A stretch of 62,841 nt of DNA, filler included, from Catajapyx aquilonaris (GCA_000934665.2; 2 parts of 2 records of this genome joined end to end with filler, not necessarily neighbours in it), one strand, 5' to 3'; numbered from the whole stretch's first letter, positions 8,596-25,355 are shown. The notes: a model not told the origin generated them from the sequence alone. Translations and numbers: made by a program.

Positions 8596-9781
8596 TTAAG
8601 GCATGCAAGAATAAAATAAGCACTTACTCTTGTCACAGCAGGGCTCCTCATCTTCCCTGCACTGCTTTACGCTATTGCAGGTGAATGCGTTCACAGCCAC
8701 ATCGCAGGGAATTTTTACCTCACTACACTTTGGGTAATCGAAGGGAATGTCACACACGTTGCATGGGCGATTCCTACCCTCGCACCTTGGGGTGGTGCCG
8801 ATTCTAATCTTGCAGCTAGGTGATAGGCATTTTTGTACCTTTGTCTTCACTGCAGGTGCTTCTCTCACTGCAAGCGCCTGTGACATCACTGCAGGTCCCT
8901 GTATCTCCGCTGGTCCCCGTCGTACCATAGCTGTCGGTTTTGGTGGCCATGGCCAAAAATTCTCAGCAGACTCTTCGTCGGGGGCAGAACGGGGGTTATA
9001 GACACACCGCAATTCATCAAATCTGCATGGTTCTGCGCAGTCCGTGCACTCGGGACGTCCAGGGGTTCCACACTCCACACAGTATCTGGCACCATCACTT
9101 TTGCAGGGTAAGTACATTAAACACGGAATCTCTCTACTTTTACAGGCCTCTACAGGTGGCCCACTTGGACACTGTTGGTAACGTTGCTCTCCGCAGGGTA
9201 GACCCCAGAAGTTGGGCAGGCAAGCCCTGGGGAGCCGGACGCATGGATACTCAACCTGGCAGCGATTGCACTTCTTGTCGCCTTTTGTGCAATTCAGTGA
9301 ACAAGGATACTCTTCAGGATGGCACAGTCTTCGCACCAAGCATGGCGATTCGTCTCGATTGCAAAGCCTGCACTTTGGGCAGGTCTTGTGGCACAAATCT
9401 TGATCGCATTTAATTTGACCAGGCTCTCCGCATCGGATGCATGGGTATTCACCTTCCTCGCAGAAGTTTGGATAAGTGCAGGGGAGCTCGTTGAACCGGC
9501 AGGGCCTGGATTCGCAACCAGCTAGTTGTGACTGATTACAGCATGGTTTCTCGTATGGGCGGCAATGGCACGGTCTAGGTTGGTTCGGCTGGTTTATGCA
9601 GTAGGCGTACCCGAGCCTACAGGGGACCTCATGCATGTTACAAGCCCTCTCCTTTGCATGGCAGTTTGGAAGCCCTGGACGATTGCATAAGACGCATGGC
9701 CAGTCAGTGTCATTTTTGCATGTCGTAGGTGTGCTGCAAGAGTGGTAAGTGAGAAGAATTAGAACATTCTGCACCAAACGC
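8596..9781 (-). CDS. Cys/Pro-rich repeat exon (~394 codons), proposed terminal exon 8 of the ADAM-like gene, or a separate gene
   Basis: Open frame with about 55 Cys and repeated ExPC and CxxC(G/N)xPGxxxC motifs; acceptor TTTTTCCAG at 9782 is phase 2, matching the donor of ADAM exon 7. Confidence 0.8.
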
Positions 9782-10559
9782 CTGGAAAAACGGATCCAGG
9801 TCACATGGACAACACGTTTATATTAGGTCATTCCGAGGGTCATTTGATGGTAAATGGCCAAGGAGTGGTTGCTCAATCAACTTGTTAATTTTTTGATATT
9901 TTCACCATAGGTCACGTTGACAGTTACCTGTTCAAAACTATTTTTGTTACTTTTTATATCTGCCACCATCTGAGGTTTGCACTCTTTTTTCTTTGCCGTG
10001 GCAAGCAAAATCGAGCGTTTGCAACGCCTTTGTAATTGGGACTACAGTGGATTTTATATCCGTCTTCATCCTTCTTTCACCTCCAATCATATGGTGATGG
10101 AATCTGTGGTGTTGAAACCATCATTATTTGGACCCAGCAGTAACCAGCCTGGTAGGTATACCATCAGGCTGATGGTTACTGCTGGGCCCAAAAAAGCTGG
10201 AAGGTATATTGTCAATGAGCAATTGCTCTATCTTTCTTACTAATTGGTCATTTTATTGCTTCATTAACATACTACTCGTATGGTCATTAGTACGGTCATA
10301 ACGCTTTGGATGCTGACCAATTTGTCAATTTTTGGGGGTGTTCCCGTGGACAGATTTTGACAGATTTTGGATATGTTATTCAGCAATGGATTCTGAACTG
10401 GAAACCATTCAGAAACCTGCAATTTTGCCCAGGTCAAACTCTTAATTGCCTGGACTAAGAAGAAAAATCAGAAAATATAAGGAAAATTGGTGGTATTCCA
10501 CCCTATCATGGGGTAACATTAAAAAAAATAGTAAGTTTCACTTCTAATAGTCATCACAT

Positions 10560-23600: not shown

Positions 23601-25355
23601 TGCAGGCGGGTAGGGGGGTCTCTCAGTTCGGCCCTTCGGCAATAATCTTCTGAGGGGCAGGGCTAACAACTCAGATATCACGTGACGCATCTCAGAATAA
23701 TCTGAATTGCCGAATACGCCTATTAACAAAACGATGGCATTTCGTTTCTACGTTTATCTGCTGAGAAGTTGTGTCTAACAATAGACACCTGACAGCATGT
23801 GCAAATGCTTTGGCTCTGACATCACCAAGGATTGCTGCAATAATTTATTATTGAAGGGTATTGCGCAAGAAGGAGGTAAGTCTATTTTTAATCGGCGTTC
23901 ATTTACCGGGTTGACTATATTGATAAAAAATGGTACAAGTACTGGAATGATCGGCCTGGGCGGGGTGACACCTTTCTGCCCTTCATAGGTAATGAAAAAT
24001 TTTGGCTTATAATTTGCAATTAGTATATTACACAATGGTCCATATGACTAGTTTTAAGGCATATAGAATGTATATGGAATTCGAATTTTGTAAACAAACT
24101 AAAATGATGTAAGATATGGATGCCCCGACCACTACCACCATAACATACCCAGTCATAACCATAACATACCCGGGCAACGCCGGGTATCCTGCCAATAGTC
24201 ACTAGCCCCAAGAACGGGTGACTATGGAAGATGAGGCAGCAAGGTGTAACCTAGAGCCTTCAGGATATCAGTGATGGAGCAACTGACTTGTGGCCCCGCA
24301 TTGTCATGTCATTACCTCTAGGGTACACCATGCTGTCTCATTCTCCATATTTGCCAGATCTTGAGACTGGAGACTATGCTTGGATATACGCAATGAAAGA
24401 GGAAGTGCATGGTCACAAGTTCACCTCCAACGACAAGCTTCAGTCGGTTGTCCACTAGTGGCACCCGGATACCCCCAAAGAATGACGACATTAGACATTA
24501 GACATTGGCAGGGAATACCATAAATGTAGCATGCATTCATTTTGTCTTAGGAAGTCCTAAGCCCTAATAATTATGAACTAAGCAGTGGATGGATCATTTG
24601 GTCCTTCCTCCAACGCCGTCACATGTGGCCAAGATGTGGGCAATATGTGTATACCTCGTCTCTCTCCAGTTTATACCTCGCGACACTACCCGTCTTGCCA
24701 AGAACTCTTGGTCTTGGTAAGTCTCGAATTGGTGCGGCAGTATCCCGCCGTGGACCTCTCTCCGTCAGTCCTGCCCTTCTTCTCACCCTCCCCTGCCTTC
24801 CCATGCACCTTGGCACCCTGGGCGGGTTCCGCTAGGGTCGAAAACGGCCATGAAAACCCAACAAAAACATGCCCTGCAGGTAGTTCGCTGCTGAACTAAT
24901 GAAAATGGAAGAATAGCCATTCGCAATAAAAATGTGCATTGAAACCTGCCTAAACCAGAATGGCTTAATTCCATGATCATTTTCTGTATCGAAACGTATC
25001 TCTACATTGTGCGGTCATCCAACAGGGCCATTGCACATATACAATTTCCCAGTCTACCCAGAGACACATACGCGCACTTGACGCGCACACGCCCTGCCCA
25101 GTCATGCTACCATTCAAGATAATAACTGCCAAACATGTCCTTCCATTAGGATTTGGTTGAATCAAGTCTGACCTGGACAGTGGTGGACACGACGTGGAAG
25201 TCCTTGAAGTAGGGTCCACCGTCACCAGCATCGCTTCCACCAAGACGACTGCCGGATGATGATGCCCCCTCGGCCTGGAAGACCCAGCAGAAGAGGACCA
25301 CCAAGAGTACCAGGCCTGGTCGCCCCACCATCTTGGCCATGCCGATGATGGCCAT
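11658..25355 (-). CDS. ADAM10/17-like protein with degenerate catalytic site; exons 25173-25355, 20985-21562, 20317-20521, 19786-19954, 13319-13537, 12879-13040, 11658-11772
   Basis: All GT-AG with matching phases (0,2,0,1,1,1, then a phase-2 donor). Signal peptide; prodomain (SSVTGYI..GRFYGEI.T...YMVE); CRLLIIGDHHFF; FCLGIVIS; GKAF..PGGLC; MAYYMARAMGAKDD in place of the zinc motif; Met-turn GHFLMH; NHWLLSSCS; CGNGVIEPGEECDCG. Confidence 0.9.
12102..12455 (-). mobile_element. tRNA-derived SINE with poly(A) tail
   Basis: Box A/B on the minus strand, T-run 12101-12120, degenerate TSD CGATTACGTATGAT (12088) / CGATTACTTATTAT (12456). Confidence 0.88.
13753..14936 (-). mobile_element. Tc1/Tc3-like element with long TIRs, decayed
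   Basis: TA-flanked, ~100-bp imperfect TIRs beginning CAGGGTCATCGAAAAAG; remnant SPDLAP..FLWGYM...VTPDML...HIE. Confidence 0.85.
13858..14331. mobile_element. hAT-type MITE nested in the Tc1-like element (spans an N gap)
   Basis: 8-bp TSD GTCTAAAG at 13850-13857 and 14332-14339; termini CAGGGATTCAACT / AGCTGAATAGCCCTG. Confidence 0.8.
16273..16623 (+). mobile_element. tRNA-derived SINE
   Basis: TGGCCGAGATGG box A, GGTTCGATCCC box B, GACATTGCACTTGCAC core, A-rich tail. Confidence 0.85.
16624..17060 (+). mobile_element. tRNA-derived SINE with a different head (Ser-GCT-like loop)
   Basis: TAGTGGAGTGG box A, GACTGCTAATC loop, GGTTCAAGTCC box B, GGTTTTCTGTGGTTTCCC block, shared core/tail, A-rich end. 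Confidence 0.82.
17541..17848 (+). mobile_element. Solo LTR, Gypsy-like
   Basis: TGTAAC...GTTACA termini, 4-bp TSD GTAG, 308 bp, internal TATA-like and ATTAAA motifs. Confidence 0.85.
22690..22865 (-). mobile_element. Mariner 3' remnant
   Basis: Inverted homologue of 24400-24547 (GTCACAAGTTCACCTCC..GACAAGCTTCAGTCGGTTGTCCAC). Confidence 0.6.
23264..23720. mobile_element. Harbinger-like MITE
   Basis: TIR GGCGTATTCGGCAATTCAGA / TCTGAATTGCCGAATACGCC; flanks TTA / TAT. Confidence 0.8.
23453..23597. mobile_element. 145-bp hAT/P-type MITE nested in the Harbinger-like MITE
   Basis: 8-bp TSD GGATGCAG (23445-23452, 23598-23605); termini CAGTGTTGCCAATG / CATTGGCATATCACTG. Confidence 0.8.
24320..24547 (+). 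mobile_element. Mariner C-terminal remnant
   Basis: GYTMLSHSPYLPDLETGDYA..AMKEEVHGHKFTSNDKLQSVVH is a degenerate YSPDL region. Confidence 0.7.

Follow-up and report, generated by a model that had tools for sequence, protein, structure and literature searches.

The genome of Catajapyx aquilonaris (GCA_000934665.2) contains a gene that is probably a lineage-specific paralogue of the ADAM10/ADAM17 group, one that is no longer a protease and that would encode a secreted binding protein, not an enzyme. The gene runs from 25355 to 8596 on the minus strand of the window, the whole stretch of 62,841 nucleotides analyzed here, in which parts of two records of this genome, not necessarily neighbors in it, are joined end to end with filler. 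The predicted product combines an ADAM-type metalloprotease-like domain that has lost its zinc site with a long C-terminal tail rich in cysteine and proline. Our preferred reading, to which we assign a probability of about 0.55, is that of an intact pseudoprotease of the ADAM10/17 lineage that is secreted and acts as a non-catalytic binder, with the tail serving as a disulfide-stapled module for attachment or multimerization. The sequence facts from which this reading starts are solid.

We rebuilt the gene model from a list of stop-to-stop open reading frames (ORFs; standard code) and an inventory of GT and AG dinucleotides, joining the exons by script. Eight exons with GT-AG borders come together in phase into 2817 nt, that is, 938 codons and one terminal stop (Table 1). 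This reproduces exactly the structure given in a preliminary description of this DNA, which had been made from the sequence alone. In the splice-site listing around the eight open blocks, all seven junctions pair a GT donor, GTRAGT-like in five cases, with an AG acceptor that has a pyrimidine tract. An alternative acceptor for exon 4 at 19993 is also in phase, but it was rejected, as it would add 13 residues that the reference alignment does not call for. Chance does not account for the open frame. Calculated from base composition, the probability of an open frame is 7e-9 for the exon 8 block (408 codons) and 2e-20 for all 938 codons, and when the exon 8 block was shuffled 2000 times, the longest open run reached 226 codons versus the 408 observed. 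The exons have a GC content of 0.40-0.61 and the introns one of 0.39-0.44.

The zinc site is encoded in exon 5, where AYYMARAMGAKDD (amino acids (aa) 432-444) stands opposite AHEMGHNFGSPHD and AHELGHNFGSNHD in ADAM10-type and ADAM17-type ORFs in both MAFFT and BLASTP alignments. Relative to AHE.GHNFGS.HD, the model carries the changes H433Y, E434Y, G436A, H437R, N438A, F439M, S441A, and H443D, and the residues of the motif that remain are A432, G440, and D444. All three zinc-binding histidines and the catalytic glutamate are gone, and the HExGHxxGxxHD consensus cannot be matched. A six-frame search of 8-26 kb finds no HExxH; the four that occur in the whole window all lie outside the gene span, and none has a metzincin context. 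The references align colinearly with exons 4 and 5, so a gap of 204 N in intron 4 does not conceal an absent catalytic segment. The alignments thus show a predicted product that should be unable to bind a catalytic zinc in the canonical manner.

The remainder of the domain has fared differently. We aligned the model by MAFFT with seven ADAM10/17-type references and counted invariant columns where at least five references were filled. The model keeps 33 of these 51 columns overall, with 3/11 kept inside the zinc motif and 30/40 outside it (Fisher p 0.0096 for the motif versus the other invariant columns), and it keeps every one of the seven invariant cysteine columns. By comparison, the model matches the commonest residue in 13 of 127 variable columns. 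The retained residues include the Met-turn methionine, M461, and the CGNG..EECDCG segment. The preliminary description had claimed that the three histidines and the glutamate were lost and that the glycine, the Met-turn GHFLMH, the structural cysteines, and CGNG..EECDCG were kept. Both claims are borne out by the alignments, the second by G440, M461, and the 7/7 cysteines, and the alternative exon with an intact HExxH that it had named as contrary evidence was looked for across 8-26 kb and not found. The alignments show a metalloprotease-like domain that, as predicted, is complete and colinear with ADAM10/17, so that catalytic residues have been lost from an otherwise intact homolog, as in other pseudoproteases.

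The family assignment draws on several kinds of comparison. When exon 3 was searched alone against PDB with phmmer, all 18 distinct sequences at E≤10 were ADAM17/TACE (E 0.015); the matched part is the N-terminal edge of the catalytic domain, with its first strand and first helix. In the ESM atlas, the best score for exon 3 was 0.76, to unnamed clusters. As a reference set, we scanned metagenome contigs for back-translated HE.GHNFG..HD, a motif without a counterpart in the window gene. The scan gave 121 loci, and from 123 motif-bearing ORFs we kept the 116 of at least 60 aa. One of these, L048, is an ADAM17-type ORF (Pfam Reprolysin_5/2 and Disintegrin; PDB match to ADAM17 at E 6e-130), with ADAM17_MPD at 24.1 bits, under the cut-off of 26.2. 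Another, L024, is an ADAM10-type ORF (Pfam ADAM10_Cys-rich; PDB match to ADAM10 at E 1.6e-147), and L079 and L073 carry ADAM10_Cys-rich as well. Both L048 (1600-3870 of its contig, minus strand, 757 aa) and L024 (87-4670, plus strand, 1528 aa) are complete and intron-free, and the latter, of ADAM10/Kuzbanian type, has a long low-complexity cytoplasmic tail. The two presumably stem from transcripts or from intron-poor eukaryotes within the metagenome data.

Against the 116 ORFs, the spliced protein aligns by BLASTP with L048 over aa 132-517 at 25% identity (83.6 bits, E 1e-18) and with L024 over aa 259-517 (E 9e-14), and the next five matches, L104, L096, L073, L099, and L079, range from E 1e-12 to 1.5e-8. 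All seven of these best matches fall in the ADAM10/17 set of our tree. Profiles were built from the metagenome ORFs for four reprolysin groups, labeled by Pfam, and the spliced protein scores 67.5 bits with the ADAM10/17 profile, 25.0 with the fungal-type, 20.6 with the classical, and 0.5 with the bacterial one. The ADAM10/17 match spans 221 of 239 profile positions (aa 258-519), and none of 500 shuffled sequences exceeded 6.1 bits. In an IQ-TREE tree under a posterior mean site frequency (PMSF) model, with 27 rows and 265 columns and the classical group represented by only three rows, the model is placed inside an 11-row ADAM10/17 set with support of 99/99, and by path length it lies nearest to ADAM10. 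Homology to the ADAM catalytic-domain fold of the Reprolysin_5/Reprolysin_2 type is thus found by BLASTP, profile, and tree. These comparisons support the view that the predicted gene is a derivative of the ADAM10/17 group of M12B adamalysins, and the exon 3 match, the BLASTP alignments, the tree, and the profile score all back the ADAM10/17 derivation first proposed in the preliminary description.

The N terminus has the features of a secretory leader, with a basic n-region, the h-region GLVLLVVLFCWVF, and an AEG/A site at which cleavage is placed by the -3/-1 rule. The best Kyte-Doolittle window of 19 aa, at aa 3-21, scores 1.86. Beyond aa 40, the best such window reaches 1.13, versus 2.39-3.22 for the transmembrane (TM) helices of L048, L024, and L079. 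By hydropathy, the spliced model contains no TM segment or cytoplasmic tail, a result that holds only if the gene really ends with exon 8. An apparent secretion signal and the lack of a TM segment had been described before, and both the hydrophobic leader and the missing TM window are recovered here. The sole furin-type R-x-[KR]-R site in the protein is RKRR at aa 64-67 (window 21556-21545), and none is found at the boundary between prodomain and catalytic domain. For the prodomain exon, exon 2, a search among longer proteins found no relative; a metagenome scan gave 86 pattern matches, 0 of them confirmed, and a single-sequence AlphaFold2 model of this exon has a predicted local distance difference test (pLDDT) score of 42.0. 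In its mature form, the eight-exon product contains 68 cysteines, an even number.

The second unusual feature of the predicted protein is its tail. The 394 aa encoded by exon 8 include 55 cysteines (14%) and 48 prolines, and the commonest cysteine spacing is 7. Four C-x2-C-x-x-P..C and ten [ED]-x-P-C motifs are present, the tail is split by a cysteine-free linker of 58 aa (aa 804-861, window 8830-9003), and exon 8 has no tandem repeats at the DNA level. The tail gave 0 matches at E≤0.001 among 1.84 billion representative proteins, only RecR (E 0.19) in PDB, 0 Pfam families at E≤1, and no usable match in the ESM atlas, and a word-based search among longer proteins found none for exon 8 and none for exon 7. 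Nor does the tail resemble the corresponding part of ADAM10/17: a profile of the stretch C-terminal to EECD[CP]G (260 residues, from four ADAM10/17 references) gives it -52 bits, a score that 29 of 500 shuffles also reach, and Pfam finds no Disintegrin, ADAM10_Cys-rich, or ADAM17_MPD on exons 7 or 8. What is left of the disintegrin region is CGNG..EECDCG and a stub of 27 aa; a complete disintegrin, Cys-rich, or membrane-proximal domain was not found. The single-sequence AlphaFold2 model of the tail (pLDDT 32.4) is uninformative. These data support the interpretation of the tail as an orphan disulfide-rich sequence unrelated to the C-terminal domains of ADAM10/17. The novel Cys/Pro tail of about 394 aa that was said earlier to replace the usual C-terminal parts agrees with both the profile score and the protein searches.

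The comparison with ADAM17, made through L048, shows the same order of signal peptide, prodomain, and metalloprotease domain, with the cysteines of the catalytic domain and the Met-turn kept, 25% identity over aa 132-517, and an exon 3 that on its own matches only ADAM17 in PDB. Unlike ADAM17, however, the present protein lacks HExGHxxGxxHD, a complete disintegrin domain, a membrane-proximal domain, a TM segment, a cytoplasmic tail, and a furin-type site at the boundary of prodomain and catalytic domain, and it enters the disintegrin region with CDCG where ADAM17 has CDPG. The likeness to ADAM10/Kuzbanian, seen through L024, extends over aa 259-517 and includes an almost identical CGNGV.E.GEECDCG. 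The present protein differs from ADAM10 in its dead zinc site, in the absence of the ADAM10 Cys-rich domain, TM segment, and tail, and in a C-terminal 394 aa that is unrelated. Since it lacks three hallmarks of an ADAM10/17 sheddase, namely the zinc motif, the ectodomain modules of the C-terminal half, and the membrane anchor, we class the gene as a derived pseudoprotease of the ADAM10/17 lineage.

ADAM proteins without catalytic activity are not new in themselves. The sections of a review that treat them list unc-71 and ADAM2, 7, 11, 18, 22, 23, 29, and 32 as ADAM pseudopeptidases, state that these retain the Met-turn, and describe the binding of LGI1 by ADAM22 through the surface of its metalloprotease-like domain, whereas ADAM10 and ADAM17 have 0 mentions in the main text (PMC11266112). 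As far as these sections describe them, the known ADAM pseudopeptidases resemble the present protein in a degenerate HExGH and a retained Met-turn, and their roles lie in non-catalytic binding. The ADAM22-LGI1 pair is the closest working analogy for what the present protein may do. To our knowledge, the listed pseudopeptidases are all classical membrane-anchored ADAMs that keep their disintegrin, Cys-rich, EGF, and TM parts. The present protein differs from them in that it would belong to the ADAM10/17 group, has no TM segment, and carries an orphan tail.

A soluble outline is known from ADAMDEC1 (decysin), which is truncated in the disintegrin domain and, in the passages of PMC3055250 that deal with it, has a working zinc site, changed only in its third histidine to aspartate, and is thought to be active (PMC3055250). 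Unlike the present protein, ADAMDEC1 is a relative of the classical ADAM28 without an added Cys-rich tail. The same source, in its passages on Xenopus ADAM10-like and Drosophila Kuzbanian-like, presents these as lineage-specific ADAM10 paralogues that arose by independent duplications and are transcribed, with Kul required for Notch signaling (PMC3055250). Those passages do not mention a loss of the zinc site in either protein, and our comparison with them is by description only. Full-text literature searches, which were not exhaustive, found no description of a zinc-site-null protein of the ADAM10/17 type.

Taken together, these features suggest how such a protein might work. It would be secreted, and because its sole furin-type site lies at aa 64-67, with none at the boundary to the catalytic domain, the prodomain may stay attached. 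The folded pseudo-catalytic domain could offer a protein-binding surface, by analogy with the metalloprotease-like domain that ADAM22 uses for LGI1. The exon 8 tail would take the place of the disintegrin, Cys-rich, TM, and cytoplasmic parts and could act as an extended cross-linked stalk or as a module that binds matrix or ligand. The most likely mode would be non-catalytic binding outside the cell, as a decoy, a scaffold, or a structural component.

Several observations weigh against this reading. A Pfam scan of the eight exon ORF blocks, one by one, gave 0 families at E≤1. Likewise, single-exon phmmer searches of PDB found no match at E≤10 for exons 4, 5, 6, and 7 and returned only Splicing factor 45 (E 0.4) for exon 2; single exons are too short for these searches, which are nearly blind at that level. 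In the tree, the terminal branch of the model measures 3.0 changes per column versus a median of 0.56 (about 5x), and because this branch is so long, the placement is fragile. The position within the ADAM10/17 set, on the ADAM10 or the ADAM17 side, has a lower support of 63/73, and in the approximately unbiased (AU) test a tree that joins the model to the three classical rows is not rejected at 0.05 (difference in log likelihood 15.6, p 0.0625). The retention of invariant columns is in part favored by the aligner, so the contrast between the zinc motif and the columns outside it is supportive and not decisive. Codon usage does not discriminate the frame of exon 8: its correlation with exons 1-7 is 0.23 in frame and 0.37 and 0.22 out of frame. 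Finally, searches of proteins and metagenome contigs yielded no ortholog or paralogue for the tail or for the prodomain exon. Further points of this kind gather at the 3' end of the gene.

The weakest link of the model is the step from exon 7 to exon 8. The donor of exon 7 has the same phase as the acceptor of exon 8 at 9781, which has a good pyrimidine tract; phase and splice consensus are what connect the two exons, and a phase match is expected by chance in 1 of 3 cases. Read-through of the exon 7 donor adds a methionine and then meets a stop, and no AATAAA or ATTAAA lies within 1.2 kb past the stop of exon 8. These observations bear on the most serious alternative, in which the dead ADAM10/17-like gene is real and its 3' end differs from the model, and which we regard as clearly possible, though well short of even odds. 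Transcripts might stop after exon 7 through retention of intron 7 (..CRIM), yielding a soluble protein of 544 aa with an outline like that of ADAMDEC1; exon 8 might be part of another transcript; or the GTAAGT donor at 8628 inside exon 8 (phase 1) might splice into the tandem C-type lectin exons downstream. The last form gains from the phase of that donor, which is compatible with the lectin acceptor at 4167, from the phase of all four lectin exons (1-1), and from the region 8595-4168, which yielded no convincing candidate for a signal-peptide exon of the lectin array. A tail without homology to any part of an ADAM would also be expected if exon 8 belonged elsewhere. On the other hand, exon 8 is an open frame of 408 codons without an upstream signal-peptide exon of its own, as intron 7 contains no convincing one. 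Because 14% of its residues are cysteine, exon 8 needs a secretory leader, and the nearest exons on the same strand are the ADAM-like ones. The acceptor at 9781 and the even cysteine count of the mature eight-exon model likewise speak for the join.

A second alternative, which we consider unlikely, is that the locus is a non-functional relic, that is, a duplicated ADAM10/17 gene in neutral decay, or an untranscribed model, in which mutations have so far spared the frame and the splice sites. At a divergence of about 3 changes per column, a neutrally decaying gene should have lost its 938-codon frame (P about 2e-20, from base composition) and its 14 splice signals, and invariant structural residues, with the full set of invariant cysteines, are retained far above background (30/40 versus 13/127), even though the loss of every catalytic residue, the extreme length of the branch, the absence of a homolog of the tail or prodomain exon from the public proteins searched, and the transposable element (TE) fragments and assembly gaps in the introns would all suit a relic. 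That the protein is still an active protease, through another exon or an unconventional kind of metal site, is very improbable: acidic residues, D443/D444 among them, persist close to where the site was, and intron 4 does contain the gap of 204 N, but HExxH is absent from all six frames of 8-26 kb, with the window's four elsewhere and outside any metzincin context, exons 4 and 5 run colinear with the references and lack no part of them, and 8 of the 11 invariant positions of the zinc motif are changed, including that of the general base glutamate. We therefore return to the intact, secreted pseudoprotease as the preferred reading. Because the frame is intact despite a branch of 3.0 and invariant columns are kept at 30/40 outside versus 3/11 inside the motif, the view that the gene has been selected and repurposed is indirectly supported.

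Table 1. Exons of the ADAM10/17-like gene and associated features, in window coordinates.
Feature	Position	Strand	Description
Exon 1	25173..25355	(-)	ATG; hydrophobic leader, aa 1-30; 61 codons; donor CAG/gtcaga
Exon 2	20985..21562	(-)	Prodomain-like; only R-x-[KR]-R site; aa 132-254 lie within the BLASTP alignment to L048
Exon 3	20317..20521	(-)	Start of metalloprotease-like domain (KVVCRLLIIGDHHFF..), from MAFFT and PDB phmmer
Exon 4	19786..19954	(-)	Middle of metalloprotease-like domain (..NEFCLGIVISGSFFKDAPG); colinear with references in BLASTP and MAFFT
Exon 5	13319..13537	(-)	Degenerate zinc site AYYMARAMGAKDD, window 13341-13379
Exon 6	12879..13040	(-)	Met-turn GHFLMH (window 13009-13026), C479, C494, start of CGNG
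Exon 7	11658..11772	(-)	VIEPGEECDCG and 27-aa stub with 3 more Cys; donor CAT/gtgagtag
Exon 8	8596..9781	(-)	394-aa Cys/Pro-rich tail and stop
Candidate donor within exon 8	8628..8629	(-)	AGA/gtaagt; last exon base 8628; phase 1; 30 nt before stop
Tandem C-type lectin exons	4167-4003, 3629-3393, 3320-3165, 1811-1596	(-)	All phase 1-1
Second copy of exon 1	28706..28888	(-)	ATG and GT donor kept; 5/183 nt differ

The surroundings of the gene add some further observations. Its promoter region and exon 1, together with the first part of intron 1 (24717-25880), are duplicated about 3.5 kb upstream, at 27500-27675 and 28445-29436, with about 90% identity. The second copy of exon 1 (Table 1) could serve as an alternative first exon, or it could be a duplicate that stems from the assembly or from a second haplotype; the two copies are separated by 3 non-synonymous and 2 synonymous differences, which are uninformative. 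The introns of the ADAM-like gene carry TE fragments and assembly gaps. In the window as a whole, such gaps amount to 729 N (14049-14252, 33196-33518, and 54355-54450, plus single Ns such as that at 11077), and of these, intron 4 contains one of 204 N and intron 7 a single N. Intergenic positions 4708-4928 have a short interspersed repeat in common with positions 16272-16498 in intron 4, where it is inverted (81% identity over 228 nt), and a similar translation at 12205-12408 suggests that the same repeat may be present in intron 6. An ORF at 11303-11653 (minus strand) in intron 7 looks similar by eye to a mariner-type transposase fragment that lies in the lectin gene at 2153-2464 (minus strand; Pfam Transposase_1, E 3e-11); Pfam did not confirm the intronic one at E≤0.01. 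The lectin array itself, with matches to Pfam Lectin_C at E 1e-11 and 2e-10, is on the same strand, 4.4 kb downstream of the ADAM-like gene, and seems to run off the window. Farther away, self-BLAST reveals a satellite-like tandem array at 37274-38235, with a period of about 113 bp, about 8 copies, and 89-96% identity.

Shedding of Notch, TNF, and EGFR ligands is chiefly the work of ADAM10 and ADAM17. Relative to the known ADAM pseudoproteases, what would be new in the C. aquilonaris protein is its membership in the ADAM10/17 group, its predicted solubility, and its orphan C-terminal half. More tentatively, the gene may stand for a kind of ADAM pseudoprotease that has not been described before: secreted, of the ADAM10/17 group, null for the zinc site, and with the half that positions substrates and anchors the protein in the membrane swapped for an orphan disulfide-rich module of regular cysteine spacing, possibly with a read-on from 8628 into the lectin exons. 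Such a protein would serve as a soluble decoy or scaffold that captures extracellular sheddase substrates or glycans. The finding concerns a single locus in one animal genome. If the gene is transcribed, it would indicate that evolution can also put the ADAM10/17 fold to use in soluble form, as a module without catalysis, and, if this holds true, the locus would constitute a natural experiment on which surface features of the fold are kept once catalysis has been lost.

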